Source: Desulfobacterales bacterium (GTDB taxonomy: Bacteria; Desulfobacterota; Desulfobacteria; Desulfobacterales; UBA5616). From it: 64,000 bases of DNA. Of this stretch, positions 8,541 through 28,868 are shown one piece after another; the first letter of the stretch is position 1; every line of letters starts with the position of its first letter. Both the position numbers and the translations under genes were made by a program. Below the pieces are notes generated by a model. That model saw only the letters and a list, made by a program, of their open reading frames with translations. It had not been told where the DNA came from and made no database searches. Location: assembly GCA_046483495.1 (NCBI GenBank), contig JAWODC010000044.1, forward strand, positions 1 to 64,000, written 5' to 3'.

Positions 8541-8556
8541 TTGGCACAAGGTTTGC
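8541..8556 (+). promoter_or_regulatory. Sigma54 (-24/-12) promoter of the catabolic cluster
   Basis: TTGGCAC-AAGGT-TTGC matches the TGGCAC-N5-TTGC consensus. It directly follows the activator gene and is preceded by an AT-rich, possibly IHF-binding, tract. Confidence 0.9.
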
Positions 8557-8645
8557 GTAATCTTCCATGGGAAAAGCGATAACGCCTATTGGCGGCTTGG
8601 TTAATTTCGATCAAAACATAATCAAAACATACATGGGAGGTCATT

Positions 8646-8873
8646 ATGAAAAAACTGCTGAAGGATATCGACGACTCTAAAAAAGTTTTCAAAGACATGG
8701 GAATGAATAAATGGCGTGAAGTTAATTTGCCGGCATTGAAAAAAGGGGACAGGTTCCGAGTCTACACCAAAGTCGGGCGGCCCTTAGAGTTGGGCGGCGA
8801 AGAAACGCTGGTCGCCCATTCCGATGCATATCAGGTGGACGGTGTCTGGACCATCGAGGTAAAAGCAAGCTGA
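8646..8873 (+). CDS. Small hypothetical protein, first gene after the sigma54 promoter
   Basis: GGGAGG RBS before the ATG, 75 aa, no recognised motif. Confidence 0.75.
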   Translation: MKKLLKDIDDSKKVFKDMGMNKWREVNLPALKKGDRFRVYTKVGRPLELGGEETLVAHSDAYQVDGVWTIEVKAS

Positions 8874-8930
8874 AAACATCATAACTCCGTCATCGGTTGT
8901 CGTTTTTAAATTTTTGAGAAAGGAGTCCAT

Positions 8931-10172
8931 ATGAATCGATCAGACCGTTCAAATGGCGTAAAAATAGGGGGTGAACTTCCACAAGAAGTCACCATGCTGG
9001 AACTTTTGTTAAGAGACGGACTGCAGCATGCTTCAAAGGTCATTGCCACCGAGGGCAAGGTATGGTATGCAGATCAGTTGGTGCGGGCCGGCTATCGCCA
9101 GATCGAAGTCACCAATTTCGGGCATCCGGCTCTGCTGGTTCAATTCAGGGATGCCGAGGAGGTGCTGGAGCGTGTCCATAAACTGAAAATCGTCCAGGAG
9201 GAAAAGCCCCACCTCAAATGCTACGGCATGACGAAAAAAGCGTTTCAGAGGGCCGCCGATATAGCCCAGAAAGGATTTCCTCCATCGAGTGTCGCATTTA
9301 CGATATCCGCAGAAGACCTTCACGGCCGAAGAAATGCAGGAAGGACCCGAAAGGAGTATCTGGCCGAGATACCGGAATTTATCAAGATCGCCGAGGAAAA
9401 CGGCTTCGAAATCGACATGGCCATTGCCTGTACGTATGGTTCGCCCATCGCCGGACCGGTTGCCATCGAAAATACAATGGAATTGATGGATTGGGGATTG
9501 GACCACGGCATTCGCAGCTTTACCCCATGTGATACGACGGGAGAATCGAACCCCCGAAAAAGTTATGAGTATATGGCTGCGCTCGTGGATCGATACGGCA
9601 AGTATGACGATGAAATTAAATTCAGGGTGGCCCATTTTCATGAATGCAGGGGCATGGCCCTGCCCAATACCATGGCCTGCATACTGGCGGGTGCGCGAAT
9701 TATCGAGAGTTCGGTGGGCATGGGCGGTGGACAGCCGGCCTTTTTGGTAGAGGGAATTCCGGGCAAAGGCAGCGGTCCTCTTTATACCAATTCCTGGGAA
9801 GTCGGGAATTGCCCTACGGAAGATGCCCTGGTGATGATCGATGAAATGGGGATTGAAACCGGCATCGATATCGACCAGATGCTGTGTATCGGAAGGGTAT
9901 TTGAATGGACGATGGAGAGAAGCCTGCCGGTGTGGACCACTAAAGCGGGAAGACCCGTCAAATATCCGGTTGAGTGGTGCATTCCTGCCAACAGCCTGGA
10001 GCATATTCCGCCTTACGGTCCTCCGCAGGTATTCTGGGCTTCGCCGGAAAAATATATACCGGCCTCCAAGGAATTCATTGATCGGGAATTTTCGGGCCGC
10101 ACCTTCAAGTGGGGAAAAACAGAAGACAGTGAGGACGAATACACCCGGATCGAAACGTTCGAGGATGAGTAA
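8931..10172 (+). CDS. HMG-CoA lyase-like (DRE-TIM) C-C lyase
   Basis: LRDGLQ, CDTTG, HFHE metal motif, GNCPTED; AAGGAG RBS. Confidence 0.85.
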   Translation: MNRSDRSNGVKIGGELPQEVTMLELLLRDGLQHASKVIATEGKVWYADQLVRAGYRQIEVTNFGHPALLVQFRDAEEVLERVHKLKIVQEEKPHLKCYGMTKKAFQRAADIAQKGFPPSSVAFTISAEDLHGRRNAGRTRKEYLAEIPEFIKIAEENGFEIDMAIACTYGSPIAGPVAIENTMELMDWGLDHGIRSFTPCDTTGESNPRKSYEYMAALVDRYGKYDDEIKFRVAHFHECRGMALPNTMACILAGARIIESSVGMGGGQPAFLVEGIPGKGSGPLYTNSWEVGNCPTEDALVMIDEMGIETGIDIDQMLCIGRVFEWTMERSLPVWTTKAGRPVKYPVEWCIPANSLEHIPPYGPPQVFWASPEKYIPASKEFIDREFSGRTFKWGKTEDSEDEYTRIETFEDE

Positions 10173-10223
10173 ATTCGTCGGTCTTCCCCGGTAAACCCGA
10201 AAACTACTAGAAAAGGAGAGCGA

Positions 10224-12185
10224 ATGAGCGAAAAAGCGAAAAAACGTGAGCAGGAAATTCCCTGGGGGGAATTGGATTTGCATCCGAATGCAAGCACTTA
10301 TCTTGCAGATGTCCTCGTGGAACACGGTGTGGAAATCGCCTTCGGGGTCTCAGGCGGACATATCTGGCAGATTGTCGATGAAATGAGTCTCGCCGGAATC
10401 AAAAATATCATTGTCCGTCACGAACAGACCGGCGGTTATGCCGCCGAAGCCTACTCGAAGGTCACCCGAAAGCCCGGCGTTTGCTTCGGAACCGTGGGGC
10501 CGGGCGTCGGGAATACACTGAGTGCGATTCAGCAGGCCCATGAAAGCAATTCGCCGGTGTTGTTTCTGGGCGGCGGCAACAGCCCCGAGTCGGATTACCT
10601 GCCGGTTATCCAACCCTCCTACGTGCTGGACCTGTTCCGTCATATCACCAAATACTGCCAGCGGTTGGTGGAGCCGTCCATGTTCAAACAGAACATCGCC
10701 AGGGCATTCATGGCCATGCAATCTTACCCAAAGGGCCCGGCGGCGCTCGAGGTTCCGGGTTCGGCCCTGTTCAGGCCGGTTCCCCCGAAAGGTCCCGCAG
10801 GGATGATGGGGGAACACGCGTTGTATCAGCCCAAATGGCTGCACGAAAAAACAGGAGATGCACCGGAACCGGGCGGTGATCCGGAAATGATCGAAAAGGC
10901 GATAAAGATGCTCTGGGAGGCAAACAATCCCCTCATTTTTGCCGGTGACGGCGTGCACTGGTCCGATGCCGCCCAAGAGCTGGTGGCATTTGCAGAACTC
11001 GCTAAAATACCCGTGGTCACCCGAAGGATCGCCCGGGGGAGCATGCCGGAAAATCATCCCCTTTACCTGGATTCCAGAACCGGCCGGGAGGCGATTGCCC
11101 AAAGCGACATACGTCTCAGCCTGGGCATGAAAATCGGGCTGTTCGATGGTTGGGGGAAAGGCTGGGGCCCCACGATCCAGGTAAACGAGGGGTGGGAGCA
11201 CATATGGACGTATGTCGATACACCGGCGGCAATCGTCGGCAGTGTGCGCATCGTTCTCAAGCAGATGATGGACTACATCCGTCAAAACAATTTGAAACCG
11301 CCGGCGGGCCGGGACGCATGGGTGGAAAACTGCCGGAAGGTTCAGATGGGCGGATTGGATGCCCGTCGCGCAAGGGCGGAAAAATACAAGGATCATCATC
11401 CCGTTCATTACGGGTATCTCGCCAAGAAGGCGTGGGATGTCTGTGAAGAGCTTTACGGCGGTATGAACCGGGTGATCATGGACGGATACACCATTTCCGA
11501 TTTTGCACCGGCATTTATCCAGGCGCGATATTCGGGCCAGATTATGGATGCCTCCGAATATGCAGGCGTGGGGCATGGAATGGGGATGGCCATCGGAGCG
11601 GCCTTCGGCGATCCCGAATCCGGAAATCATCCCATTCTCGCCCTCATGGGAGACGCGGGCATGGGAATCGCGGGCATGGATTACGAAACGGCATTGATTC
11701 ACAAGCTGCCGATTGTATACCTTGTTACGGAAAACCGGGGTTGGCTCACCGGTATGAAGCACGCGGTGTACGGCGAACACTGGGAAGCCAAAGGTGAACA
11801 GGACCAAGTCCACGGCGAAGAGGGTGTGGAAAATGCACGTTACGATAAACTATGCGAGATTTTCGGTGGACACGGCGAGCATGTAGCCGGACCCGACGAG
11901 ATTGTGCCGGCCTTGACCCGTGCGTTCAAGGCTGCTGAAAAAGGGGTTCCGGCGATCGTGAACGTTCACATGGATCCAAAGGTCCACAACAGGCAACTCA
12001 TCGCACCGGCGTATGCCGCCAGTTGGGCCCATCTGCCGTGGAACAAGCTTGCGCCGAGGGCAAAAGCGGCACGGAGAGTGTGGTTCGGTGCGGCATATCC
12101 GTTTGAAGATTACGGCATTCCCGCGATGACCCTTCCGGACCCCTGGGAACCCGTAAGGGATGACGAGGATTTTTCCATTGACTAA
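10224..12185 (+). CDS. Thiamine diphosphate enzyme of the 2-hydroxyacyl-CoA lyase / oxalyl-CoA decarboxylase / ALS family
   Basis: FGVSGGHI, VRHEQTGGYAAEAY, TVGPGVGN, TPP-binding GDAGMG...EN. Confidence 0.85.
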   Translation: MSEKAKKREQEIPWGELDLHPNASTYLADVLVEHGVEIAFGVSGGHIWQIVDEMSLAGIKNIIVRHEQTGGYAAEAYSKVTRKPGVCFGTVGPGVGNTLSAIQQAHESNSPVLFLGGGNSPESDYLPVIQPSYVLDLFRHITKYCQRLVEPSMFKQNIARAFMAMQSYPKGPAALEVPGSALFRPVPPKGPAGMMGEHALYQPKWLHEKTGDAPEPGGDPEMIEKAIKMLWEANNPLIFAGDGVHWSDAAQELVAFAELAKIPVVTRRIARGSMPENHPLYLDSRTGREAIAQSDIRLSLGMKIGLFDGWGKGWGPTIQVNEGWEHIWTYVDTPAAIVGSVRIVLKQMMDYIRQNNLKPPAGRDAWVENCRKVQMGGLDARRARAEKYKDHHPVHYGYLAKKAWDVCEELYGGMNRVIMDGYTISDFAPAFIQARYSGQIMDASEYAGVGHGMGMAIGAAFGDPESGNHPILALMGDAGMGIAGMDYETALIHKLPIVYLVTENRGWLTGMKHAVYGEHWEAKGEQDQVHGEEGVENARYDKLCEIFGGHGEHVAGPDEIVPALTRAFKAAEKGVPAIVNVHMDPKVHNRQLIAPAYAASWAHLPWNKLAPRAKAARRVWFGAAYPFEDYGIPAMTLPDPWEPVRDDEDFSID

Positions 12186-12239
12186 GTACACTTTCAACCT
12201 TTCTCGATAAATAAAGCTATTTTGTGCAAACACGCCTTC

Positions 12240-12271
12240 CGGATCCTCCCTCGAGGGGGAGGATCCGTTTT
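12240..12271 (+). terminator. Intra-cluster hairpin / rho-independent terminator
   Basis: CGGATCCTCCC-loop-GGGAGGATCCG (11-bp stem) followed by TTTT. Confidence 0.6.
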
Positions 12272-12298: not shown

Positions 12299-13942
12299 GT
12301 GATGATTGAAGATCTTCAATTCAATGTTATGAGAAGGTTCTGTGTCGGGGATATTTTCAGGCGTGTCGCGTTGAACAAACCCAATAAAGAAGCCATCATT
12401 TACAGTTATAAAGGCAGCACCGTCGGTTCTGCAACCTATGGTGAACTGAACCGGCGGGCCAACCGCTTTGCCGATGCCGTGTTAAAAGCCGGCATTCAAA
12501 AAGGAGACCGGGTCGCCATTATTTCCTATAACTGCATTCAATATGTAGTGTACATCATTGCGATGTCGAAGATCGGTGCCTGGATCACTCCGATCAACTA
12601 TGCGCTGAAGGGGCGCGAGATCGAACTGCTGATCAATCACAGCAAACCAAAAATGGTTATCGTAGAAGACGAGCTGATACCGCAGGTCCTTGAACTGCAG
12701 AATGAACTGCCGGATGTCGACCGCTTCGTAATGATCGATTTGAACGGCGAGACCCCGTTGCCGGAGGGATGGCATGATTTTGACGATATGTGTTCGGAGG
12801 CATACTCGGATGCCGAACCATATATGATGATCAACGGTGATGATGTATTGACCCTGATGTACACCAGCGGAACCGAAGCCATGCCCAAGGGTGTGATGAA
12901 CACGCACGCCAATTGGCATGCATCCATCATGAATTCATTCATCGACTTCGGCAGCTTCGTCAGGGAGGATTCCACCGCGTTGGGCGTGGTTCCATTGTTT
13001 CATGTCGCCGGGCATAGCTCACTTTTTGGGAACATGGCTGCGGGAAGCAAAACGATCATGCTGCACCGGCCGGATCCCCCGCTCGTCATGAAAGCGTTCG
13101 AGGAATTTACGATCACGGATGCGAATCTTGCGCCGACGGTGCTTGCCAATCTGCTGCATATGCCGGGCGGAGACAAACTGATTCAACGGCTTTTCGGATC
13201 GCTGAGAATGGTGAACCTTTACGGCAGCCCCACCACGGACGCCCTGATGGAGAAGATCATGCAATTGCTGCCGGACGCATCGTTTCAAAACTATTACGGC
13301 CAGTCCGAAATGACCCCTTTGGGGACCACGCTCAAATCGCCGGACCTCCTCAGAAAAATGAGAGAGTCCGCTGTACGGTTCGACGGCGCAAGCGCCATCG
13401 GCCAGTCTCATGCCATGGTGGAAATGAAAATCGTCGATGAAAATGACCAAGAGCTGCCCCCCGGGGAAATCGGTGAAATGGTGGCCCGGAGCCCTTCGGT
13501 GATGCAGGGATATTATAAAGAAGAACAAAAGACGGCAGAGACGTTTAGAAATGGATGGCACCACACCGGTGATTTGGCCGTCATGGACGAAGAGCGATTT
13601 TTTTATTTTGTCGATCGAAAAAAAGATATGGTGAAGACGGGGGCGGAAAATGTGTCTTCTGTGGAAGTGGAACAATGGATCGCAAGACATCCGAAAGTGG
13701 CGGAAGTCGCAGTAGTAGGAATACCTCACCCGAGATGGATGGAGGCGGTCACGGCATTTGTCGTCCCGGTTCATGGAGAATCCATCTCCGGTGATGAAGT
13801 ACTTTCCTTCTGCAAGGAAGGGTTGGCCGGATATAAAGTGCCTAAAAAGGTCATAACGGTTGCGGAGTTGCCCAAACTGCCGTCGGGCAAGGTGTTAAAA
13901 CGGAATCTGCGCACCGGTTATAACGAAGTATACCAGGAATAA
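12299..13942 (+). CDS. Acyl-CoA synthetase (AMP-forming)
   Basis: YTSGTEAMPKG, YGQSE, HTGDLA, DRKKDMVKTGAENV, PKLPSGK. Confidence 0.93.
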   Translation: MMIEDLQFNVMRRFCVGDIFRRVALNKPNKEAIIYSYKGSTVGSATYGELNRRANRFADAVLKAGIQKGDRVAIISYNCIQYVVYIIAMSKIGAWITPINYALKGREIELLINHSKPKMVIVEDELIPQVLELQNELPDVDRFVMIDLNGETPLPEGWHDFDDMCSEAYSDAEPYMMINGDDVLTLMYTSGTEAMPKGVMNTHANWHASIMNSFIDFGSFVREDSTALGVVPLFHVAGHSSLFGNMAAGSKTIMLHRPDPPLVMKAFEEFTITDANLAPTVLANLLHMPGGDKLIQRLFGSLRMVNLYGSPTTDALMEKIMQLLPDASFQNYYGQSEMTPLGTTLKSPDLLRKMRESAVRFDGASAIGQSHAMVEMKIVDENDQELPPGEIGEMVARSPSVMQGYYKEEQKTAETFRNGWHHTGDLAVMDEERFFYFVDRKKDMVKTGAENVSSVEVEQWIARHPKVAEVAVVGIPHPRWMEAVTAFVVPVHGESISGDEVLSFCKEGLAGYKVPKKVITVAELPKLPSGKVLKRNLRTGYNEVYQE

Positions 13943-14095: not shown

Positions 14096-15667
14096 ATGAA
14101 TTTAGCAGACGGACTCAGGATAAGCTCCTGGAAAAACCCTGATAAAACAGCCGCGGTATTCGAGGACAAACGGGTGACCTACGATGAATTGAACCGCCGG
14201 GCCAATCAACTGGCGCATGCCATGATCCAAAAGGGTTTCAAGCGACAGGACAAAGTGTCCATTATCATGTACAACAATATTGAATTTTTGGAAATCTATC
14301 ATGGGCTTGCCAGGGCCGCCTTGATTTCCGTACCGGTTAATTTCAGGCTGGTGCCCTCAGAAATGGAATACGTAATCAACAACTCGGACAGCACCGCATT
14401 ATTTATCGGAGTCGAATTCCTGGACAGAATCGATCTCGATCACATTCCCCTGTTGAAGCAGGAAAATATCATTGTCATTGGAAACCCGGATGATATTCCG
14501 GAAGGATATACGGAATATGAGGCATTTATCGAAGGGCAGCCGGAATTCGAACCGGATAGCGTCGAACAGCGTGAAGATGATATTTTCTATTTTGGATATA
14601 CCAGCGGGACTACAGGATTTCCCAAAGGCGCCATGAATACGGTTCGGGGAACACTGGATATCATCAAAAACCTTTTTGTCAGAACGTCCGGCAGGAAAGA
14701 CATCGATTTGTCTTCTCGAGTATTCCTGGCCATCATTCCGATCTGCCATTCGAACAGCGTTTGGGCGACACTGATTACATTCTGGGTCGGCGGCACCAAC
14801 GTCGTGTTTCCATCAGGCAAATATGATCCTGAAAAGGTTCTGAAGGTGATCGAAAGAGAAAAGGTGACCACGACGTCCATGGTGCCGACGATGATCACCC
14901 GTATTCTCGAACTCCCGGATGAGATAAAAAACCATTACGACATCCGCTCACTGACCTCACTGGGGTCATCATCCGCGCCGTTGATGACCAAAACAAAGGA
15001 AGATGCCCTGAAATTTTTCAAAAAGGTCCGGTTCAGTGAAGGGTATGGATCAACGGAAACCGGCGCCCTGACGACGCTTCGCTTCAAGGATCAAGAGCGC
15101 AAGGTCCGTAGTATCGGGCAGCCGAATCCCGGCATTGAAATCAAACTTATCGATGAAGATGGAAATGAGGTCACCGAACCGTACAAACCCGGTGTTCTCT
15201 GGGCGAAAACCCGCTCGGCGTTTACCGGATATTACAAAGATCCTAAAAAAACCGCCGAAAGCATCGATGGCGATTGGTCCACGGCCGGAGATGTCGCCTA
15301 TTTTGACGAGGAGGGATACTATTATCTAAGCGATCGAAAACACGACATGATCATATCCGGCGGAGAAAACATCTATCCGGCCGAAATCGAGGAGATCATA
15401 TCCAAGATGCCGGAAGTTTCCGAAGTGGCCGTGATCGGCGTTCCTCACGAAGAATTTGGAGAAGAAGTCAAAGCAATAGTTAAACTTGGTGAAGGCAAAT
15501 CATTAACGGAACAAGAAATATTGGATTATTGCAAGAAGCACCTGGCGGGGTATAAACGACCGAGATCCGTTGATTTCGTGACGGATTTCCCAAGAACTGC
15601 AACGGACAAAATTTTAAAACGAATCCTTCGTGAACCCTACTGGAAGGGTCAGGAGCGAAATATATAA
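14096..15667 (+). CDS. Acyl-CoA synthetase (AMP-forming)
   Basis: YTSGTTGFPKG, YGSTE, DRKHDMIISGGENIYPAEIE. Confidence 0.93.
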   Translation: MNLADGLRISSWKNPDKTAAVFEDKRVTYDELNRRANQLAHAMIQKGFKRQDKVSIIMYNNIEFLEIYHGLARAALISVPVNFRLVPSEMEYVINNSDSTALFIGVEFLDRIDLDHIPLLKQENIIVIGNPDDIPEGYTEYEAFIEGQPEFEPDSVEQREDDIFYFGYTSGTTGFPKGAMNTVRGTLDIIKNLFVRTSGRKDIDLSSRVFLAIIPICHSNSVWATLITFWVGGTNVVFPSGKYDPEKVLKVIEREKVTTTSMVPTMITRILELPDEIKNHYDIRSLTSLGSSSAPLMTKTKEDALKFFKKVRFSEGYGSTETGALTTLRFKDQERKVRSIGQPNPGIEIKLIDEDGNEVTEPYKPGVLWAKTRSAFTGYYKDPKKTAESIDGDWSTAGDVAYFDEEGYYYLSDRKHDMIISGGENIYPAEIEEIISKMPEVSEVAVIGVPHEEFGEEVKAIVKLGEGKSLTEQEILDYCKKHLAGYKRPRSVDFVTDFPRTATDKILKRILREPYWKGQERNI

Positions 15668-19281: not shown

Positions 19282-20067
19282 ATGTATGTTGCAGGAATCG
19301 ATATCGGATCAGCCGCTTCTAAATCTGTAATTCTGAATGAAAAAGGCATACTGGCATCCCATGTCATGGAAACCGGACCTCGAAGCAGAGCCACCGCTGA
19401 AGAAGCTCTTCAAGGGGTTTTGAATAAAGGGAATCTTACGCACGCGGATCTGGAATACATCGTGGCCACCGGATACGGACGGATCAACGTCCCCAGTGCG
19501 AACGAAATCATTACGGAAATCGCCTGTCATGCCAAGGGCGTACATGCGGTTTTTCAACATGCTCGAACGATTCTGGACATGGGTGGACAGGACTGCAAGG
19601 CCATTCGCATCGACAAAACGGGTCGGCACGTGGGATTTGCAATGAACGATAAATGCGCAGCCGGAACCGGGCGGTTCCTCGAAATCATGGCACAGATGCT
19701 GAAGGTGCCGTTGGAGGAGATCGGTCCTCTGTCACTCGAAGCGGGGGATGACATTAAAATAAGTAATGTCTGTGTGGTATTTGCCAGGTCCGAAGTCGCC
19801 CGGCATTTGCGCAGGGGAATCAAAAAGGCGGATATTCTCGGAGGACTGCACGCTTCCATCGCCGACCGGGTCTACGGACTGCTAAAGCGGGTCGGAATTG
19901 AATCGGAGTTCGTGATATCGGGGGGAATCGGCAAAAACATCGGTGTCGTCAAGCGTGTCGAGGCAAAGGTCGGCCTATCCGCCCATATTTCATACGATCC
20001 TCAGATCATCGGGGCTCTTGGCGCGGCATGCTTTGCAAAAGAAAGGGGATGCGAACGGGCATCATAA
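19282..20067 (+). CDS. ASKHA-type [4Fe-4S] activase subunit (BzdQ/HgdC-like)
   Basis: Likely start MYVAGIDIGS at 19282; ATGYGR, EIACHAKG, DMGGQDCK, MNDKCAAGTGRF, CVVFA. Confidence 0.9.
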   Translation: MYVAGIDIGSAASKSVILNEKGILASHVMETGPRSRATAEEALQGVLNKGNLTHADLEYIVATGYGRINVPSANEIITEIACHAKGVHAVFQHARTILDMGGQDCKAIRIDKTGRHVGFAMNDKCAAGTGRFLEIMAQMLKVPLEEIGPLSLEAGDDIKISNVCVVFARSEVARHLRRGIKKADILGGLHASIADRVYGLLKRVGIESEFVISGGIGKNIGVVKRVEAKVGLSAHISYDPQIIGALGAACFAKERGCERAS

Positions 20068-20183: not shown

Positions 20184-22271
20184 ATGGATTTAAAAGAATA
20201 CTGCCCGGAAAAACTGGCGACCGCTGAAGAAGCGGTATCGCACATTAAACCGGGCAGCCGTGTTTTTATCGGCACCGGGGCCGGAGAACCGTCACATTTG
20301 GTCAAAGCCATGATCAATAATGACAATTTGTACGACATCATGATTTATCAGATGTTGTCATGGACCCTGGCGGACTATATCAACGATGAGAATTTCCTGT
20401 CGCGTTTTTCCTTGAAACTTTTCTTTATAAGCAGCAATATGCGGGATGCGGCCTTTCAAGGGAAGATCGACTACATACCCGCCTATATTTCGAAAATCCC
20501 CACCCTGTTCGCCACCCGTCAAATCGGATTGGATGTGGCACTTGTGCAGGTAAGTCCACCCGATGAATTCGGTTATTGCAGCCTCGGCATATCCGTGGAC
20601 ATCACCCGGGCGGGATTGGAGCACGCCGGAATGGTTATCGCCCAGATAAATCCGAGAATGCCCCGCACTTTCGGTGCAACATACGTTCATGTAGACGAAG
20701 TGGATTACCTGGTGCTGCACGAAGAGCAGCTGGTCGAAACCGTTAGGACCGGACGAAGCCGGGAAAGAGAAGTTACTGAGAGAATCGGGCATTACGTTTC
20801 ACAACTGGTGGATGACGGCGCTACACTCCAGATCGGATTTGGATTTTTACCCCTTTCCATTTTGCGTTACCTGGACGACAAGAAGGATCTGGGTATCCAC
20901 ACCCAGATGATTACGGACTCTTTTCTACCCCTTTTTAAAAAAGGGGTGATCAACAATCGAAAAAAAACCCTGCTCCCCGGCATGGTGGTGGCTTCCCTGT
21001 GCATGGGCACCGAGAAAATATACCAGTATGTCGATCGGAATCCCATGTTTTATTTCCGCTCTTCGGACTTTGTAAACGATCCCATTCAAATTGCCCGAAA
21101 CGACAACATGATTTCCATCAGCTCCGCACTCGAAGTGGACCTGACCGGACAGGTATGTTCGGACTCCATGGGCTCGCTTTTCTACAGCGGGATCGGCGAT
21201 CAGGTGGATTTTTTAAGAGGGTGCTCCATGTCCAAAGGCGGCATCTCCATCATCGCATTGCCCTCAACAGCCAAAAATGGAACGGTTTCCCGGATTGTAC
21301 CGTTTCTCAGCGAAGGGGCCGGCGTTGCCACAACGCGGGGGGATGTCGATTTTGTCGTGACGGAATACGGAATCGCCGCCCTCCAGGGAAAAGGAATTTA
21401 TCAACGCGTCATGGAACTGGCCCAGATCGCTCATCCGGATTTCCGCTCCGAACTTATCGATTTGGCAAAAAAGCGCCGCTATATATTCGCCGACCAGCTG
21501 CCGCCTGCCCAGGAAGATTTGCTGTTCATCGAGAAGTATAAAAGCACCATTACGCTGAAAAACGGCAAATCCATGGAGGTAAGGCCTCTGCTGCCGTCAG
21601 ATGAATTCGCCTTCCGCAACTTTTACTATTCCCTCCAGGAACATACGATTTTTCTTCGGTTCTTCTACGATATGAAATTGTTTTCTCATGAAGTCGTTCA
21701 AATGGAATGGTCCAAGGTCGATTATCGCAAAAATATGTCGCTTATCGGGTTGATCAAGGTGGGTGGACATAAAGAAATCAAGGCAATTGGTTCTTATGCG
21801 GAGGGAGGAAATGACACAGCGGAAATTGCATTCGTCATCAGTGAAGAGTTCCAGGGGCTGGGGATCGCTTCTCAGCTTCTGGACAAACTCGAAAAAATCG
21901 CCCGGGAAAACGGCTATAAGCGTTTTGGTGCCTCCGTTATGAGAGAGAATATGGCTATGCTGCGGGTTTTTCGGAAAAAATACCCCAACGCCGAAATTAC
22001 CCTGAGCGACACGGATGAATACCGCGTTATCATGGAATTCGATGAACCAAAAAAGAAAGCGCGGCGGCTGCTTGCAGAGGAAATGAAAAAAAAGGTAATG
22101 AACGATTTGAAGCACCGGGTTGAAGATGAATTTTCGAAGGTCTTCTGGAATGATTTTAAGCGGGTCGAGGCATTCGATGCACTGGTGGAGGATATGACGC
22201 GAAAGGAGACGAATCCCGATCAGGTAGCAAGGGAATTTGTATCGAAATGGCTGATGGGGAAAAAACCATAA
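20184..22271 (+). CDS. Acetyl-CoA hydrolase/4-hydroxybutyrate CoA-transferase-like domain fused to a GNAT, with a helical C-terminal tail
   Basis: Likely start MDLKEY at 20184; QVSPPDEFGYCSLG, GATLQIG, GIGDQVDF, VVTEYG; GNAT AEIAFVISEEFQGLGIA. Confidence 0.88.
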   Translation: MDLKEYCPEKLATAEEAVSHIKPGSRVFIGTGAGEPSHLVKAMINNDNLYDIMIYQMLSWTLADYINDENFLSRFSLKLFFISSNMRDAAFQGKIDYIPAYISKIPTLFATRQIGLDVALVQVSPPDEFGYCSLGISVDITRAGLEHAGMVIAQINPRMPRTFGATYVHVDEVDYLVLHEEQLVETVRTGRSREREVTERIGHYVSQLVDDGATLQIGFGFLPLSILRYLDDKKDLGIHTQMITDSFLPLFKKGVINNRKKTLLPGMVVASLCMGTEKIYQYVDRNPMFYFRSSDFVNDPIQIARNDNMISISSALEVDLTGQVCSDSMGSLFYSGIGDQVDFLRGCSMSKGGISIIALPSTAKNGTVSRIVPFLSEGAGVATTRGDVDFVVTEYGIAALQGKGIYQRVMELAQIAHPDFRSELIDLAKKRRYIFADQLPPAQEDLLFIEKYKSTITLKNGKSMEVRPLLPSDEFAFRNFYYSLQEHTIFLRFFYDMKLFSHEVVQMEWSKVDYRKNMSLIGLIKVGGHKEIKAIGSYAEGGNDTAEIAFVISEEFQGLGIASQLLDKLEKIARENGYKRFGASVMRENMAMLRVFRKKYPNAEITLSDTDEYRVIMEFDEPKKKARRLLAEEMKKKVMNDLKHRVEDEFSKVFWNDFKRVEAFDALVEDMTRKETNPDQVAREFVSKWLMGKKP

Positions 22272-22424: not shown

Positions 22425-23555
22425 ATGAGTCAAAAGGAATGTGCAATTGTGGGATTGGGATATACTCCTCAGGGAAAATGTCCTGATTGGACGGTTAGGG
22501 AGCTTTTCCTTGAAGCCAGTGTCAATGCCATTTCCGATGCGGGAATGAAGCCGCACGACATCGACGGCATTCTCGTTGAACTTTGCTGGACGGATCCCAT
22601 GACGCAGTGCTGGTCCCTTCAGCAGGATTTGGGAATTCCGGAACTGTCCCTGTCGGCCAATTACGATTCAATGGGCGCTTCCGGCGGCTGCAAAATTCAG
22701 TTGGCCCAATGGGCTATTCAAAACGGAATCTGCAAGAACGTACTGATCGCATTCGTCGAAAAATCGGCTACTGCGCCTGCAGTACCTTACAGGAGCAGCC
22801 CCGGCCCGACCATGGCGTACGGTCTGCACGGAGCCATGCACGGAATCGCGATGGCCGCCATGCGGCACAAACTGCTCTATGGGACAAAAAGCGAGCAGCT
22901 CGGGGAAGTGGCGGTGACATTTAGAAAGCATGCCAACCTGAATCCGAATGCCCAGATGTATGGCCGCCCCATGACCCTCGAAGACCACCAGAACTCCAGG
23001 ATGGTGTCGGAACCGCTGCACTTGTATGACTGCTGTCTGGTTTCCGACGGCGGCCGCGCAGCCGTGGTCACTTCGGCGGAGCGCGCAAAAGACTGCCCGC
23101 AATCGCCTGTATATGTTATGGGATATGGTCAAGGCCATGTCAAAATGGATCTGGTGGAACGAAATACACTGGAGGATACCGGTGCCCGGCTGTCCGGTGA
23201 ACACGCATTTAGAACCGCCGGGATTCAGCACAAGGACATCGATGTGCTTGGGCTGTATGACGCCACCTCACACAATATTATCACCCAGCTCGAAGAACTG
23301 GGATTCTGTGAACGGGGGGAAGGCGGCGCTTTTGTCGAAAACGGGCGCTTGGGATTGGATGGTGAATTTCCGACCAACACCTCGGGCGGCATGCTTTCCG
23401 AAGCCTACCTGCAGGGATGGACCGGTATCCCGGAGGTGGTCAGCCAATTGAGGGGCAATAGCGGCGAACGCCAGGTTAAAGATGCTAAAATCGGACTTGT
23501 AACGAATCAGGGCGGGTTTATCGCCTTTCACTCAACACTAATTCTGCGGAGGTGA
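22425..23555 (+). CDS. Thiolase-fold protein, SCP-x/Ltp2-like aldolase
   Basis: HANLNPNA, PLHLYDCCLVSDGG, LYDA, NTSGGMLSEAY; no catalytic Cys at the MGASG position. Confidence 0.85.
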   Translation: MSQKECAIVGLGYTPQGKCPDWTVRELFLEASVNAISDAGMKPHDIDGILVELCWTDPMTQCWSLQQDLGIPELSLSANYDSMGASGGCKIQLAQWAIQNGICKNVLIAFVEKSATAPAVPYRSSPGPTMAYGLHGAMHGIAMAAMRHKLLYGTKSEQLGEVAVTFRKHANLNPNAQMYGRPMTLEDHQNSRMVSEPLHLYDCCLVSDGGRAAVVTSAERAKDCPQSPVYVMGYGQGHVKMDLVERNTLEDTGARLSGEHAFRTAGIQHKDIDVLGLYDATSHNIITQLEELGFCERGEGGAFVENGRLGLDGEFPTNTSGGMLSEAYLQGWTGIPEVVSQLRGNSGERQVKDAKIGLVTNQGGFIAFHSTLILRR

Positions 23556-23561
23556 TCGATC

Positions 23562-23987
23562 ATGACAAATGAATTTCCAAAACCGGAACCTGCCATAACG
23601 CCCGAGACAAAACCTTTCTGGGATGCGGCCAAAAATAAGGATTTTATGCTGGTTAAATGCACGGAATGCGGGACGTTCAGGAACCCGGTTTCCATTACGG
23701 GCAATATATGCCCCGAATGCGGATCCCGAAAACCGGGAGAATGGGTTAAAGCCAGCGGCAAAGGCAAGGTTCATACGTATACCGCGGTTCATCGTACATT
23801 CCACCCGGCATTTGAAAAAGAGCTTCCTTATATTCTGGTAATTGTCGAGCTCGATGAAGGGCCGCGGTATCTCGCCAATATGCGGGAAGCCGAACCGGGG
23901 GATATGAAGCTGGACATGCCGGTGGAGGTCATATTTGAAAAGCTGACCGACGATATTATGCTTCCTCAGTTTCGGCCGGCCAAATAA
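23562..23987 (+). CDS. DUF35 Zn-ribbon/OB-fold protein (partner of the thiolase-fold enzyme)
   Basis: PFWDA, CTEC...CPEC, ASGKGKVHTYT, VELDEGPR. Confidence 0.92.
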   Translation: MTNEFPKPEPAITPETKPFWDAAKNKDFMLVKCTECGTFRNPVSITGNICPECGSRKPGEWVKASGKGKVHTYTAVHRTFHPAFEKELPYILVIVELDEGPRYLANMREAEPGDMKLDMPVEVIFEKLTDDIMLPQFRPAK

Positions 23988-24288: not shown

Positions 24289-25077
24289 ATGGAATACAAG
24301 GACATCATCGTCGAACAAAAAGAGCACCTGACAATCGTAACGATTAACCGGCCCAATGTCATGAACGCGATAAACCCAATGACAAGCCTTGAGCTGGAAC
24401 ATGTGTTCGATGCATTCAACGAAGATCCGGAGGCATGGGTGTGCATCATCACCGGTGCCGGAGAGAGGGGCTTTTGCGTGGGGAATGATTTAAAATTTCA
24501 TGCCGAAAATATGGCGAAAATGGCCGAACTCAATGCCAAGCTGAAATGCGGTTTTGGAGGCATAACCGAGCGGTACGACTGCTTCAAGCCGATCATCGCC
24601 GCCGTCAACGGAATGGCATTGGGCGGCGGATTCGAAATCGCCCTATCATGCGACATCATTATCGCTTCTGAAAATGCAGCATTCGGTCTGCCTGAACCCC
24701 GCGTCGGCCTTATGGCACTGGCCGGCGGTGTACACCGCTTGTCCCGGCAAATTCCCTATCATACAGCAATGGGAATGATCCTCGGGGCCAAGCGCATCAC
24801 CCCTCACCAAGCCTTGTCCTACGGTATTGTCAACGAAGTGGTTGCGCCGGAAAAGCTGATGGAAACCGCCGAAAATTGGGCGAATGAAATCATGCTGGGA
24901 GCCCCTCTGTCGCTTCGCGCGTCAAAAGAAGCCGTTATAAAAGGGGCCGACCTGCCGCTGGACAAGGCGGTTGCCGCCTACTTCCCCGGCACGCTTAAAA
25001 TGATGAATTCGGAGGATATGATCGAAGGGCCCACCGCATTCGCTCAGAAACGAAAGCCGAATTGGAAGGGCCGATAA
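24289..25077 (+). CDS. Enoyl-CoA hydratase (crotonase family)
   Basis: INRPNVMNA, FCVGNDLK, KPIIAAVNGMALGGGFE, FGLPEPRVG. Confidence 0.93.
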   Translation: MEYKDIIVEQKEHLTIVTINRPNVMNAINPMTSLELEHVFDAFNEDPEAWVCIITGAGERGFCVGNDLKFHAENMAKMAELNAKLKCGFGGITERYDCFKPIIAAVNGMALGGGFEIALSCDIIIASENAAFGLPEPRVGLMALAGGVHRLSRQIPYHTAMGMILGAKRITPHQALSYGIVNEVVAPEKLMETAENWANEIMLGAPLSLRASKEAVIKGADLPLDKAVAAYFPGTLKMMNSEDMIEGPTAFAQKRKPNWKGR

Positions 25078-25158
25078 AAAATGGCCTTTTGGATCACCAT
25101 TTCGGCCGATGAATAGCATCAACAAACAAACTGTATTTTAATCAAAGGAAGATGACAT

Positions 25159-26346
25159 ATGGATTTTGGATTTACACCTGAACAGGAGGCTTTCCGTGCC
25201 GAGGTTAAGGCGTTTATAGAAAAAGAAGTTCCAAAAAAATGGAAGGATCTTGGATACGGGATATGGGAAGAAGATGATGAATCGTGGGAAATGACCCGGG
25301 ACTGGTTTCGAAAAATGGGCCAAAGAGGGTATCTCTCACTGACGTGGCCCAAGGAATACGGAGGACAGGAACGGTCTCATATTTACCAGCTTATCCTCGA
25401 TGAAGAAATGTCCCGGGCGGGAACCCCCTCGGGGATTGAAACCATGATTACTATTGGATGGGTTTGTCCGACCATCATGGTATTCGGCACCCCCGAACAA
25501 AAGGAAATGATCCTGCCGAAAGCGGCCGGAGGCGAGCTGGTCTTTTGTCTGGGCTACAGCGAGCCGGACGCCGGATCGGACCTTGCCGGCGTTCGGACAA
25601 CAGCCGTCGAAGAGGGCGATGCCTTTATCATCAGCGGCCAAAAAATCTGGACCACTATCGGTCACCGGGCGGATTACTGCTGGTTGGTCGCCAGAACGGA
25701 TCCGGATGCGCCAAAACACAAAGGGTTGAGTATGTTCATCGTGGATATGAAAACACCGGGGATAAAGGTAAATCCATTGATCAATATTCTTGGGTTTCAT
25801 TCCTTTAACGAAGTGTTTTTCGATGACGTCCGGGTTCCGAAAAAAAATCTCGTGGGCCAAAAAAACATGGGCTGGTACCAGCTGGCCATGGCCTTGGATC
25901 ATGAACGTTCAGGAGTGGGAACACCGGCGGCCCTGAAACGTATGATCGATGAACTGGTTCACTACTGCAAAACCACCCGTCGGGAAGGTAAGCTGCTGGC
26001 CGATGATCCCGTCGTCCGGAAAAAATTGGCCCACGTTGCCTTGGAAGCTGAAATCTTGAGAATGATTTGTTTTCGGGTGACTTCGATCCAGGCTAAAGGA
26101 AACGTTCCGAATTATGAAGCCTCCATGGCCAAAGTGATGACAACCGAAATAATGGAACGAACGAGCAATATCGCACTGAGTATACTGGGTCCCTATGGAC
26201 AGCTGGATCGCGGCTCCCGAAGAGCTCCCCTTGGCGGAATGTTTCTCAGACAGTTCCTGCATTCGCCGTCCTCGGTCGGGGGCGGGACGTCTGAAATTCA
26301 GAGAAATATTATTGCCATGAGGGGGTTGGGGCTGCCCAGGCAGTAA
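25159..26346 (+). CDS. Acyl-CoA dehydrogenase, FadE26-like alpha subunit
   Basis: WPKEYGG, LGYSEPDAGSDLA, GQKIWT, FNEVFFD, LDHER, GGTSEIQRNII. Confidence 0.92.
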   Translation: MDFGFTPEQEAFRAEVKAFIEKEVPKKWKDLGYGIWEEDDESWEMTRDWFRKMGQRGYLSLTWPKEYGGQERSHIYQLILDEEMSRAGTPSGIETMITIGWVCPTIMVFGTPEQKEMILPKAAGGELVFCLGYSEPDAGSDLAGVRTTAVEEGDAFIISGQKIWTTIGHRADYCWLVARTDPDAPKHKGLSMFIVDMKTPGIKVNPLINILGFHSFNEVFFDDVRVPKKNLVGQKNMGWYQLAMALDHERSGVGTPAALKRMIDELVHYCKTTRREGKLLADDPVVRKKLAHVALEAEILRMICFRVTSIQAKGNVPNYEASMAKVMTTEIMERTSNIALSILGPYGQLDRGSRRAPLGGMFLRQFLHSPSSVGGGTSEIQRNIIAMRGLGLPRQ

Positions 26347-26427
26347 CAGGCAATAACGATGGGAAGACCATGCGTTTCGGGAAAGTGGTTCTATCATGGT
26401 CAAGCAAAACCCCTGAAAGGAAATGTT

Positions 26428-27630
26428 ATGGAATTTCAATTCAACGAAAAGGAAAACGCTTTCAGGAAGCAAGTGGAGCAATTTCTCCAGGCGGAATTGC
26501 CCCCCGACTGGCCCGGAAAATCTACGCATTGGCCCGGCGGCTACGGTTCCATGGAAATGCGCGATGATCCGGAGCTTGTTGAATCGGCTCGCCGGTTCAG
26601 GAAAAAATTGGCCCAAAAGGGATGGCTGACCATCGCCTGGCCCAAGGAATACGGTGGAAAACAGTATACCTACATGGAGCAGGCCATATACGACGAGCGC
26701 ATCAGTTATTACCGGGCCCCGGGAACGGGCATCGGCGTGGGAATTGCCGGTCCGACCATTCTGCATTTCGGGACCGATCAGAACAAAAAAGAATGGATCC
26801 CCAGAATCGCCGGTGGAGAAATAGAAATGTGGTTGGGGTACAGTGAGCCGGATTCCGGGAGCGATCTGGCCAGTATTCAGACGACGGCCGTCGAAGACGG
26901 GGATCACTACATCGTAAACGGACAGAAGATATGGAGCACGATTGCCCATATTGCGGATTATGCCTGGATGATTGTCAGAACCGATCCGGATGCCCCGAAG
27001 CATAAGGGCATCAGTTTTTTAATCGTCGATAATGCCTCACCCGGCGTCACCATTCGCCCCCTCATCAATATTGTCGGTGTTCACTCGTTCAACGAAGTTT
27101 TTTTTGACAATGTTCGAGTGCCGAAAAAAAATCTGATCGGCGAGAAGAATATGGGGTTCTACTACCTGATGCTGGCCCTGGATTTTGAACGCCTGATGGT
27201 AGGGATCGGCGGTTTCAAAAGGGTTCTGGAAGAATTGACGGCGGTTGTCCATGAGTCCAAAAGAGACAAAAGGCGGTTGGCGGATTACGAGGACGTCAGA
27301 AAAAAGCTCGCCCTTATTTCCACGAAACTGGAGATCGCCTATATGTTTTTTTGGAGAACTGCCGAAAAACTGGACAAGGGGCAGAACACCAGTGTAGAAG
27401 CCTCTGCATTGAAATTGAGCTGCACCGAACTGAGCCGCCAACTGGCCAATGTCGCCATGGAAATCCTTGGGCCTTACAGCCAATTGATGATGTCCTCGAA
27501 GTATGCGCCTTTCAGGGGAATGGCGCCAAGAGGATACCTGGACTGCATATCGGCGACAGTCGGTGCAGGGTCATCGGAAATAATGCGAAATATTATCGCC
27601 GTCAGGGGGCTGGGACTGCCCCGAAAGTGA
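26428..27630 (+). CDS. Acyl-CoA dehydrogenase, FadE26-like alpha subunit
   Basis: Likely start MEFQF at 26428; GYSEPDSGSDLA, FNEVFFD, LDFER, AGSSEIMRNII. Confidence 0.92.
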   Translation: MEFQFNEKENAFRKQVEQFLQAELPPDWPGKSTHWPGGYGSMEMRDDPELVESARRFRKKLAQKGWLTIAWPKEYGGKQYTYMEQAIYDERISYYRAPGTGIGVGIAGPTILHFGTDQNKKEWIPRIAGGEIEMWLGYSEPDSGSDLASIQTTAVEDGDHYIVNGQKIWSTIAHIADYAWMIVRTDPDAPKHKGISFLIVDNASPGVTIRPLINIVGVHSFNEVFFDNVRVPKKNLIGEKNMGFYYLMLALDFERLMVGIGGFKRVLEELTAVVHESKRDKRRLADYEDVRKKLALISTKLEIAYMFFWRTAEKLDKGQNTSVEASALKLSCTELSRQLANVAMEILGPYSQLMMSSKYAPFRGMAPRGYLDCISATVGAGSSEIMRNIIAVRGLGLPRK

Positions 27631-27734
27631 ATCATCGGTCTGGATTAGGGGTGACGCTTTGATTAAACCGCATGAGAAAATGCTTCAAGACACCCTGAAT
27701 TATCCGCGATTTCCAATCGGAAGGAGAATATCAA

Positions 27735-28868
27735 ATGGATCTGGATTTAAATAAAGAACAGAAAATATTGAAAAAATCCGCTCAAGAATTTCTTAAAAAG
27801 GAATGTCCCACATCGCTGTTGAGGGAAATGAAAGACGATGAAAAAGGCTATCCTGAAGCATTGTGGAAAAAGATGGCCGATCTGGGATGGATGGGCGTCA
27901 TGATTCCGGAGGCGTATGACGGAATAGGGGGCGATTTTCTCGACCTTGCCATTTTACTGGAGTCCATGGGTGAAGTGAATTGCCCCGGCCCCTTTTTTTC
28001 AACCGTTGTTTTGGGGGCGACGGCCATAATCGAGGCCGGAAATGAATCGCAGAAGAAGGCTCTTTTACCCGGAATTGCAAATGGCGATCTCATATTAGCA
28101 TATGCTGCAACAGAACCGGAAATGTATTATGACGCCGCTGCCATCACGATGACGGCCAAACCGGCAGGCGAATCCTTCGAGCTTACCGGTACAAAGCTTT
28201 TTGTAGAGAATGCCCATATCGCTGATTACATGATTTGCGCCGCCAGAACATCCGGCCGGGCCGGGGACCGGGGCGGCATTAGCCTTTTTCTCGTAAATGC
28301 GAAAAGGCCGGGCATTTCGGTGCATATGCTCGACACGCTGGCCTTTGATAAGCAATGTGAAGTGGTTTTCGATCAAGTCAAGGTAAACCGGGAGGATGTC
28401 ATCGGCGGTATCGACGGCGCCTGGGAAATAATGGACCGTCTGCAAACCATTGCCATAACCGGAAAATGTGCCGAGATGGTCGGCGGCATACAGACGGCGT
28501 TCGATACAACGGTTGCCTATGCCAAGGAAAGAAAACAGTTCAACAGGCCCATCGGCAGTTTTCAGGCGGTCCAGCACCATTGCTCCAACATGGTGATGGA
28601 CGTGGACAGCGCGAGGTTTATCACCTACAAAGCGGCATGGGAAATCGCAGAAGGTATGGATGCGTCCTTAAGCGCCGCCATGGCCAAGGCATGGACCGGA
28701 ACCGCCGGCCAACGGGTCACCATTCTGGCCCATCAGATCCATGGTGCCATTGCGTTTTGTGAAGAAATGGATCTTCACCTCTACTACCGCCGCGCCAAAG
28801 CGGGAGAGGTGTTTATGGGTGACAGCGATTTTTATCTGGAAAAGATTGCGCACGGTATCGGACTCTGA
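27735..28868 (+). CDS. Acyl-CoA dehydrogenase, FadE27-like beta subunit
   Basis: LWKKMADLGW, PGPFFST, RKQFNRPIGSFQAVQH, QIHGAIAF, LHLYYRRAK; lacks the SEPxxGSD motif. Confidence 0.9.
   Translation: MDLDLNKEQKILKKSAQEFLKKECPTSLLREMKDDEKGYPEALWKKMADLGWMGVMIPEAYDGIGGDFLDLAILLESMGEVNCPGPFFSTVVLGATAIIEAGNESQKKALLPGIANGDLILAYAATEPEMYYDAAAITMTAKPAGESFELTGTKLFVENAHIADYMICAARTSGRAGDRGGISLFLVNAKRPGISVHMLDTLAFDKQCEVVFDQVKVNREDVIGGIDGAWEIMDRLQTIAITGKCAEMVGGIQTAFDTTVAYAKERKQFNRPIGSFQAVQHHCSNMVMDVDSARFITYKAAWEIAEGMDASLSAAMAKAWTGTAGQRVTILAHQIHGAIAFCEEMDLHLYYRRAKAGEVFMGDSDFYLEKIAHGIGL

Follow-up and report, generated by a model that had tools for sequence, protein, structure and literature searches.

The DNA examined here is a 64,000-nucleotide stretch (the window) at positions 1 to 64,000 of the forward strand of contig JAWODC010000044.1 from a Desulfobacterales bacterium (assembly GCA_046483495.1). 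It carries, at 8646-28868, a gene cluster that may well serve the breakdown of acyl-CoAs branched at the beta carbon. The cluster comprises 16 co-oriented genes on the plus strand, of which 15 are large open reading frames (ORFs; 8931-28868) and one is an ORF of 75 amino acids (aa). Its Pfam content includes an HMG-CoA-lyase (HMGL)-like protein, a thiamine pyrophosphate (TPP, also TDP or ThDP) enzyme, two AMP-forming ligases, two HGD-D subunits, two BcrAD/BadFG activases, a thiolase-like protein with a DUF35 partner, a crotonase, three acyl-CoA dehydrogenases (ACADs) and a CoA-transferase-like/GNAT fusion. A preliminary description of this DNA had placed 16 co-oriented genes behind a sigma54 promoter, which the ORFs, Pfam and a site at 8542-8556 bear out; Pfam also confirmed the families that it listed, but the fusion (20184-22271) had been omitted. 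As it had also stated, the cluster genes by Pfam include neither a Cys-type thiolase nor a member of the 3-hydroxyacyl-CoA dehydrogenase family. However, a short-chain dehydrogenase (SDR) gene lies between ligase 2 and the HGD-D pair in the related genomes G001 and G002, and the absence of a dehydrogenase is therefore not conserved.

Directly upstream of the cluster lies a gene for a sigma54-dependent activator with TPR, GAF, AAA+ and HTH domains (5312..8452, plus strand; PF00158, E 1e-63). It is the likely cluster regulator, and orthologs lie upstream of the cluster in G001 (77% identity), G002 (66%) and G003 (59%). By motif match, a sigma54 -24/-12 promoter element, TGGCAC-N5-TTGC, was located at 8542..8556 on the plus strand. 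This was the sole strict match in the window, with 32 matches in the 4.19-Mb host genome (G000, 96.7% complete), and a strict site arose in 0.02% (0.0002) of shuffles of the 193-bp spacer. A relaxed TGGC-N7-TTGC stands at the equivalent place in G001 and G003, while no site was found in the scanned stretches of G002 and G004, nor a second one in the 12 cluster spacers scanned. Intergenic gaps of 113-301 bp occur within the cluster, and the TPP gene is followed by a 12-bp GC-rich hairpin and then GTTTT (12240..12267, plus strand; -25.2 kcal/mol in a 45-nucleotide window), a possible terminator or processing signal. Given the hairpin, the 16 genes may not share a single transcript. Metatranscriptome contigs from four runs of three studies, among 12 runs listed, matched the cluster in short pieces, mostly at 99% identity or more; these matches neither show transcription nor rank the genes. 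G001, G002 and G003 share the gene order apart from some gained and lost genes; ligase 1 and one ACAD are absent from the G003 cluster. The TPP and Ltp2 (aldolase) genes are immediate neighbors in G004.

The TPP gene (10224..12185, plus strand) encodes a long ThDP-dependent enzyme of a sister clade to the ketone-induced TDP enzymes of sulfate reducers, with 41-44.5% identity over about 667 aa to proteins P0215, P0271 and P0272, whereas true orthologs of P0215 are 54-87% identical to it. Full-length identity, C-terminal extension included, was 41.0% to the enzyme of Desulfosarcina cetonica, 44.5% to that of Desulfotomaculum (Desulfoscipio) geothermicum and 43.3% to that of Desulfotomaculum (Desulfotruncus) arcticum. 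The three proteins were reached by search from a TPP relative in a mutase-bearing locus. They are taken to be the published acetone-induced enzymes on the basis of pair identity and length, not of locus tags: P0271 and P0272 are 88.9% identical, the D. arcticum and D. geothermicum pair was reported as 88.76% identical (PMC8084838), and a length of 685 aa has been given for the TDP enzyme (PMC7176365). In a quick tree of 54 proteins, computed without bootstrap and anchored by OXC and presumed AHAS with no verified 2-hydroxyacyl-CoA lyase (HACL) included, the window clade and the acetone-type clade grouped with a support of 99, apart from both anchors. The HACL-like or lyase rows of this tree (L214, L245 and L246) fall below the NF058623 cut-off and so are not verified HACL anchors.

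In a PDB profile search with the TPP enzyme, the best 14 of 26 matches were all HACL, HACS or OXC, and AHAS came last (26th). In single-sequence comparison, the solved HACL-type structures were distant (E 1e-38 to 1e-43), and the enzyme fell below all NCBIfam cut-offs (NF058623, 179/600; TIGR03254, 173/739; TIGR00118, 173/538). Consistent with the preliminary description of an HACL-like enzyme, the PDB ranking and the tree point to the CoA-thioester lyase kind. Acetolactate synthase was rejected as an identity on the TIGR00118 score, the separation in the tree from the presumed AHAS of the host (contig C69) and the last place of AHAS among the PDB matches. The ThDP motif (G476-D477...N504), the activating E67 and Q130 are invariant in the alignment (A1). 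CoA-binding arginines (R273, R417) and an acid/base Glu (E493) have been reported for AcHACL (PMC8760513, PMC11271303); in our own reading of the profile alignment, the window enzyme has an Arg near R273, Pro for R417 and Gly for E493.

Several further members of the TPP clade were observed. The host genome has two paralogs (C18:54348-56528 and C82:19756-21702; 66% and 51%), one of which lies between an ADP-forming ligase and an SDR, near a thiolase-like/DUF35 pair. Fusions of a TPP enzyme with DUF362, about 1,090 aa long, were seen in P0106, P0107, P0110, P0113, P0114, P0117 and P0118 and in L087 and L166. Four paralogs (P0103, P0104, P0111 and P0112) occur in records named Bacillota, and tandem pairs are also present in L065, L067, L078 and L085.

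The gene before the TPP gene (8931..10172, plus strand; PF00682) encodes an HMG-CoA-lyase-like DRE-TIM enzyme with conserved R28-D29 and H235-x-H237. It is an ortholog of the D. cetonica HMGL-like protein, being 81% identical to P0413 (WP_054693842.1), which is encoded on the same contig as P0215. Ligase 1 (12299..13942, plus strand; PF00501) is shared with G001 and G002. Ligase 2 (14096..15667, plus strand) is co-conserved with the HMGL-like gene, and its orthologs (75-76%) adjoin the HMGL ortholog in G046, G142, G157, G320 and G382.

Among 401 genomes of the order, TPP profile matches were found in 17 at E<=1e-120 and in 12 at E<=1e-200, a threshold set after the data had been seen. An HMGL ortholog (at least 75% identity, with next matches at 37% or less) was present in exactly those 12 genomes, from six families that as relatives are not independent, and in none of the five weaker ones. 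Matches to HgdA at E<=1e-85 were confined to eight genomes, all within these 12. An Ltp2 ortholog was found in 5 of the 401 genomes, all of family f1; a MasD-like gene was present in all five and in none of six others tested (G320 and G382 excluded), the five being of one family and not independent. Metagenome loci were reduced from 68 to 67 with a TPP ORF, to 50 at 90% identity and to 24 of at least 10 kb. Near these 24 TPP loci, HGD-D and family III CoA-transferase genes were each found eight times, AMP ligase genes seven, mutase genes six and HMGL genes five times; formyltransferase genes were found twice, and AFOR and Ltp2-like genes once each. In random windows of the host genome, the frequencies were 3.7% for HGD-D, 3.3% for mutase and 12% for family III CoA-transferase. 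At 70% dereplication, HGD-D genes lay near 4 of 12 TPP loci. Co-occurrence of HACL-like and HGD-D genes, which the preliminary description had proposed to check, is thus seen in both samples, with TPP, HMGL and HGD-D genes co-conserved. Mutual exclusion of HGD-D and mutase genes near TPP genes was also considered and rejected, as L042, L046, L089, L105 and L114 have both.

The radical enzyme is encoded by four genes on the plus strand. The alpha (catalytic-type) HGD-D subunit (15911..17209) retains the three-Cys catalytic cluster (C104/C140/C370) and the conserved Glu (E66) of the Had/Hgd/Lcd/Fld dehydratases and has Arg143 at the position of BzdO His131. In an alignment to 8S02_B, cysteines 35, 72, 99, 276, 305 and 342 of the beta subunit (17202..18377) match the [8Fe-9S] double-cubane ligands listed for BzdN, a cluster that HADs are reported to have lost (PMC11971306). 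The beta subunit, having all six cysteines, is therefore not of the HAD type. The ATP-dependent activase subunits follow at 18381..19175 (PF01869; TIGR00241 above cut-off) and at 19282..20067 (start placed by its ribosome-binding site; the longest ORF begins at 19192). These two activase genes differ from the arrangement in Had/Hgd/Lcd/Fld dehydratases, which have a single activator gene whose product is a homodimer.

The alpha subunit is nearest HadB and the beta subunit nearest BzdN, and both score far below every family cut-off (alpha against HadB, 168/750; BzdO, 98/449; BcrB, 106/487; beta against BzdN, 214/454). The six-Cys set was present in 19 of 29 beta subunits aligned, and none of the six positions was conserved in the Fusobacterium locus L212, taken as Hgd and used as a control. 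Thus, the set marks a broad group in Desulfobacterales and is no sign of ring reduction. Judged by its sequence, the radical enzyme appears to belong to neither HAD nor BCR. Its two-activase build would suit delivery of more than one electron, and it could be either a dehydratase or a reductive dehydroxylase. A true aryl-CoA reductase, which the preliminary description had named as the finding that would count against it, was not recovered: the scores, the Arg in place of His131 and the absence of the downstream ring hydrolase Oah indicate that the enzyme is not a canonical aryl-CoA reductase. In G142 and G320, HgdAB orthologs (72%) adjoin a second HGD set, a thiolase and a hydratase/dehydrogenase, and cluster B of Desulfococcus biacutus has the same make-up. 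The host genome as a whole has 17 HGD-D matches (contigs C7, C29, C34, C56, C67, C84 and C91), which make up eight heterodimer pairs plus a DCCP above cut-off; no BCR or HAD cut-off is reached by those scored. In qualitative terms, dehydration of a 2-hydroxyacyl-CoA is downhill and hydration of a beta-substituted enoyl-CoA at C2 is uphill. The mechanism of the dehydratase is described in PMC8473912.

The remaining catalytic genes, also on the plus strand, form an aldolase/ACAD module. The Ltp2-like retro-aldolase (22425..23555; 6OK1, E 2e-62) has Y278 and Y328 at the positions of TcLtp2 Y294 and Y344 and Ala for His296, reading YDAT where Ltp2-type enzymes have YDHF. In TcLtp2, Tyr294 and Tyr344 are reported to be catalytic, and loss of His296 lowers efficiency 14-fold (PMC12329534). 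The adjacent gene encodes a DUF35 (ChsH2 C-terminal) aldolase partner (23562..23987; PF01796, PF12172); with both retro-aldolase tyrosines present, the Ltp2/DUF35-like lyase first noted in this DNA is upheld. An enoyl-CoA hydratase of the crotonase family (24289..25077; PF00378) is followed by the three ACAD genes. The first encodes a PimC/ChsE4-like large subunit (25159..26346; TIGR03204 best, below cut-off), nearest 4X28 (best PDB match 4X28_A) and 6WY8, which we take to be steroid side-chain ChsE enzymes. The second, the one absent from the G003 cluster, encodes another PimC-like large subunit (26428..27630, start placed by its ribosome-binding site; 49% identical to the first), and the third a PimD-like small subunit (27735..28868; TIGR03203 best, below cut-off). 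The count of three ACADs given previously is correct for genes; as subunits, they probably make up one or two heteromeric enzymes.

Between the activases and the aldolase lies a gene for a family I CoA-transferase-like domain fused to GNAT by Pfam (20184..22271, plus strand). It has HTQM where the solved transferases 3EH7 and 9VAG have HTEM, and the Gln was found in 10 of 10 rows of at least 66% identity, the window and one repeat row included. The Glu of HTEM is catalytic in family I CoA-transferases. The protein is likely to be a regulatory, CoA-sensing acetyltransferase and not a transferase, to judge from this motif. It was dropped as a formyl-CoA source because the change of Glu to Gln is kept in its orthologs. 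Of all parts, the HMGL-like protein and ligase 2 resemble their counterparts in acetone-type clusters most closely and are first candidates for formyl supply. Fusions with Gln for the HTEM Glu recur beside TPP-family genes (window 20184-22271, G000:C73:18850-20781, L087 and L166); at two loci the fusion has the TPP gene on one side and a B12 mutase gene on the other. It is possibly an acyl-CoA-sensing protein acetyltransferase. Elsewhere, an Fmt-like formyltransferase adjoins TPP-family genes in L064, L067, L069 and L070 and in L155, L157 and L159; one lineage also has a family III CoA-transferase and HGD-D set there, and another a radical-SAM activase and a 126-aa protein. At these metagenome loci it is a candidate link between formyl-THF and formyl-CoA.

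The host genome contains dsrA, FTHFS, 10 AFOR-family matches and seven B12 mutases. It also carries an alkylsuccinate synthase-like set (C56:1338-8605), in which mutase genes lie behind the gene for a glycyl radical enzyme that scores 1261 bits against MasD. It has no Oah above cut-off (118 bits against 464). From these genes, we infer that the host reduces sulfate, activates alkanes by adding them to fumarate and is without the benzoyl-CoA ring-opening step. A separate biotin-dependent Liu-type cluster, with an acetoacetate-CoA ligase and another HMGL-like gene, already covers isovaleryl-CoA. No acetone-type B12 mutase was found in the host, the best matches to the L117 copies being 35% and 30% identical; in the search for acetone carboxylase, its sole hydantoinase-B-type pair was scored best by caprolactamase models, below cut-off.

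Gene sets of this kind have a precedent. Clusters induced by acetone or butanone have been described in D. biacutus, D. cetonica, D. arcticum and D. geothermicum (PMC4103992, PMC7888143, PMC8084838). In these strains, a B12 mutase, a dehydrogenase and a ligase are induced by acetone alongside the TDP enzyme, as are an HMGL-like protein and two subunits of BCR/HGD type (PMC7888143, PMC8084838). The D. arcticum cluster comprises a TDP enzyme, an HMGL-like protein, DUF35 and thiolase-annotated genes, a crotonase, a BCR/HGD pair and an AMP ligase (PMC8084838), and the ketone-induced TDP enzymes are proposed to formylate ketones (PMC7888143, PMC8084838). Most of the inventory first drawn up for the window therefore belongs to a cluster type that is already described. 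The open-access literature yielded no paper on the arrangement found here, none under the name of the lineage, no later proof of the TDP reaction of sulfate reducers among the papers listed, nothing useful on an anaerobic retro-aldol route for phytol and almost nothing on oxygen-independent alpha-oxidation with HAD and HACL.

Collectively, these data suggest that the cluster is a relative of the acetone-induced cluster. We hold it tentatively, and as somewhat short of probable, to be a bypass for beta-branched acyl-CoAs that combines retro-aldol cleavage, formylation and removal of a 2-hydroxyl. From the gene content, homologies, motifs and co-occurrence observed, we infer each of its reactions, their direction and the substrate. 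A ligase, a dehydrogenase and the crotonase would convert a beta-branched acid to a tertiary 3-hydroxyacyl-CoA, which the Ltp2/DUF35 and HMGL-like lyases would cleave to a ketone and propionyl- or acetyl-CoA. A tertiary alcohol cannot be oxidised, which fits the absence of a dehydrogenase and a thiolase. The TPP enzyme would then join a formyl unit to the ketone, as proposed for acetone, and the ATP-driven iron-sulfur enzyme would take off the new 2-hydroxyl, standing in place of the B12 mutase of acetone degraders. The product would be a 2-alkyl-2-enoyl-CoA if the enzyme dehydrates or a 2-alkylacyl-CoA if it dehydroxylates reductively, and ordinary beta-oxidation would follow; reductive dehydroxylation would suit the double-cubane, two-activase build. 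With acetyl release, the net loss of two carbons and gain of one would equal the skeleton change of alpha-oxidation without O2. The feed would likely be acyl-CoAs with a methyl branch or a ring that arise when alkanes are degraded by fumarate addition. Examples would be 3-methylpentanoyl-CoA, passing via butanone to tiglyl-CoA, and 2-cyclopentylpropionyl-CoA, passing via cyclopentanone. Intermediates of iso- and cycloalkanes are a guess drawn from MasD and the slow turnover reported for branched and cyclic alkanes without oxygen (PMC8400375).

We favor the beta-branch bypass because it leaves no catalytic gene without a use, provides for consumption of the ketone and, on general thermodynamic grounds, runs the dehydratase downhill. 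Its weak point is the missing formyl donor, and a number of further observations weigh against it. No match to the radical-SAM activase, 126-aa protein or formyltransferase that flank acetone-type TDP genes was found in the host genome; with the HTEM Glu also lost, no formyl-CoA source is identified there. Formylation by a TDP enzyme has never been shown in vitro, even for D. biacutus or D. cetonica, formyl-CoA being among the donors tried (PMC7888143). G004 (84% complete) has no HgdA ortholog, and the HGD-D neighbors at metagenome loci are only 29-35% identical to those of the window and so are not orthologs. Mutases lie near 6 of 24 TPP loci, so that HGD-D and mutase are not alternatives everywhere. 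The Ltp2/ACAD module is joined to TPP genes only in f1 and lies near 1 of 24 metagenome loci. The 81% match of the HMGL-like protein to that of an acetone degrader argues for a small shared substrate and not for varied branched chains. Finally, paralogs of the TPP clade adjoin ligases, a mandelate-racemase-family gene and AFOR, which fits cleavage of 2-hydroxy acids.

This last context bears on the catabolism of imported 2-hydroxy acids, in which the ligases would activate the acid, the TPP enzyme would cleave it to a carbonyl and formyl-CoA, and HGD-D would dehydrate it as an alternative entry to beta-oxidation. The ligases beside the paralogs include ADP-forming, AMP-forming and PaaK-like types, and an actinobacterial lyase is reported to work in this way (PMC7176365). 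However, such a route would leave Ltp2/DUF35, the heteromeric ACADs and the tight HMGL link unexplained, and by our alignment reading AcHACL E493 and R417 are not conserved; we regard it as distinctly improbable. In the O2-independent alpha-oxidation originally proposed, HGD-D would hydrate a 2-enoyl-CoA at C2, the TPP enzyme would release an aldehyde or ketone and formyl-CoA, and an AFOR encoded elsewhere would oxidise the aldehyde. This route, which we judge unlikely, would need two consecutive steps generally held to be uphill for beta-substituted substrates, and the operon's own crotonase would compete for the same enoyl-CoA. In its favor, the route would dispense with the formyl donor that was not found; HGD-D genes lie near the TPP family more often than in random windows, the 10 AFOR-family matches and FTHFS are available in the host, and HACL-type chemistry is reversible (PMC8760513). 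However, the operon has no aldehyde-oxidising gene and AFOR adjoins TPP genes at 1 of 24 loci, nothing would consume the ketone that the aldolases release, and the beta subunit has a reductase-like six-Cys set and is not HAD-like. The net one-carbon shortening of that proposal is retained here, but both key steps more likely run the opposite way, as the nearest studied TPP relatives are ketone-induced and proposed to formylate.

A mosaic operon is quite unlikely in our view. Here, a small central metabolite, either HMG-CoA/acetoacetate or 3-hydroxyisovaleryl-CoA, would be the substrate of the HMGL-like protein and ligase 2, and Ltp2/ACAD, the TPP enzyme and the radical enzyme would serve separate branches under one regulator. 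The rearrangement or unlinking of the modules outside f1, the hairpin after the TPP gene, the wide gaps and the occurrence of HMGL and ligase 2 elsewhere with a Cys thiolase, a carboxyltransferase and a Na+-pump beta subunit (a leucine/Atu-like set) are consistent with it. However, the HMGL-like and TPP families co-occur in 12 of 12 cases among the 401 genomes, the TPP gene abuts Ltp2 in G004, no second sigma54 site was found in the 12 spacers scanned, and the host has a separate HMG-CoA lyase cluster with an acetoacetate-CoA ligase. Degradation of an aromatic acid by a true class I aryl-CoA reductase would account for the order alpha-beta-activase-activase, the two activases and the six BzdN-type cysteines, and an ATP-dependent type I reductase has been reported in naphthalene-degrading sulfate reducers (PMC13365417). 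We consider it very improbable: the subunits are far below the BzdN, BzdO, BcrB and BcrC cut-offs, the host has no Oah, the cysteines, found in 19 of 29 beta subunits, are no mark of ring reduction, and Arg replaces His131, though MbdO is also without His at the aligned position.

Other features of the window and host genome lie outside these arguments. The first gene of the cluster (8646..8873, plus strand) encodes a conserved protein of 75 aa that belongs to no known family; identity is 85% in G001, 75% in G003 and 61-63% in L087 and L202. It had no Pfam match, and its Atlas matches all stayed under 0.9. The segment 1162-4717, which lies upstream of the sigma54 activator gene, holds a hemerythrin-domain gene and a gene for a 7TM hybrid histidine kinase. 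Directly downstream of the cluster, 29078-29584 encodes an HNH protein kept in G001 (76%) and G002 (69%), and 30292-31928 contains two ORFs (339 and 144 aa) without Pfam or NCBIfam match, just before recB-recD where recC might be expected. Elsewhere in the host genome, a second glycyl radical enzyme of similar size (C25:3622-6114) adjoins an IS1634 transposase, and HMG-CoA-synthase-like proteins of about 490 aa adjoin thiolase-like genes on C17 (L227:8071-10749) and C63 (L232:7277-9955).

In the accounts of the ketone clusters, attempts to prove in vitro the central TDP step by which sulfate reducers activate ketones have failed, and no roles are assigned to the HMGL-like and BCR/HGD proteins induced with it (PMC7888143, PMC8084838). 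The window cluster is a compact set in which to probe those roles, as TDP enzyme, HMGL, ligase and HGD are kept, the mutase and accessory genes are gone, and an aldolase module that would form ketones is added. More broadly, alkane-degrading sulfate reducers could shorten beta-blocked acyl-CoAs by one carbon without O2 through a "minus C2, plus C1" shunt that would parallel alpha-oxidation under anaerobic conditions and serve as the lower pathway for iso- and cycloalkanes; this generalization is doubtful. If true, it would explain how branched and cyclic alkanes pass the beta-branch without oxygen, define a new clade of C1-ketone carboligases and give a first function to many double-cubane HGD-D pairs of Desulfobacterales.

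Among known systems, aerobic alpha-oxidation by phytanoyl-CoA hydroxylase and HACL1 has in common with the proposed bypass the net one-carbon shortening of beta-blocked acids; it differs in its O2-dependent hydroxylase, which the cluster does not have, and in that the TPP step of the bypass would add C1. The best profile matches of the TPP enzyme are HACL, HACS and OXC (RuHACL 6XN8, AcHACL 7PT1 and the Apb, Dhc and Tb HACS), with which it shares the ThDP motif, E67, Q130 (AcHACL Q128) and a GGH loop as in AcHACL. In contrast to these, it is without AcHACL E493 and R417, is below the NCBIfam cut-offs and has a C-terminal extension of about 60 aa common to acetone-type enzymes. The radical enzyme resembles BzdNOPQ (8S02), MbdONPQ (9G87), HadBC (3O3M) and DCCP (6ENO) in being a heterodimer with ASKHA activases and in its three-Cys cluster, conserved Glu and BzdN-type six cysteines. 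It departs from BCR I and HAD in that its alpha subunit is nearest HadB but its beta subunit nearest BzdN, there is no His131, and every cut-off is missed; HAD is, moreover, reported without the double cubane whose six ligands the window beta subunit has (PMC11971306). With the steroid ChsE/ChsH/Ltp2-DUF35 module and Sal-Shy, the cluster shares heteromeric ACADs, DUF35 and an aldolase with both Ltp2 tyrosines, but it has a crotonase, not a MaoC hydratase, and YDAT, not YDHF or YDCY. The ketone clusters of sulfate reducers share with it the long TDP enzyme (41-44.5%), the HMGL-like protein (81% to D. cetonica) adjoining the TPP gene, an AMP ligase and, likened by family, a BCR/HGD pair; DUF35, thiolase-annotated genes and a crotonase are also present in D. 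arcticum. However, the window cluster is without the B12 mutase, MeaB, SDR, radical-SAM activase, 126-aa protein, formyltransferase, carboxyltransferase and Na+ pump of those clusters and adds heteromeric ACADs, a two-activase set and the CoA-transferase-like/GNAT fusion, in a host that has MasD. Thus, the cluster resembles the ketone cluster of sulfate reducers but has no mutase, and the loss of the mutase and accessory genes and the gain of ACADs are what set it apart.

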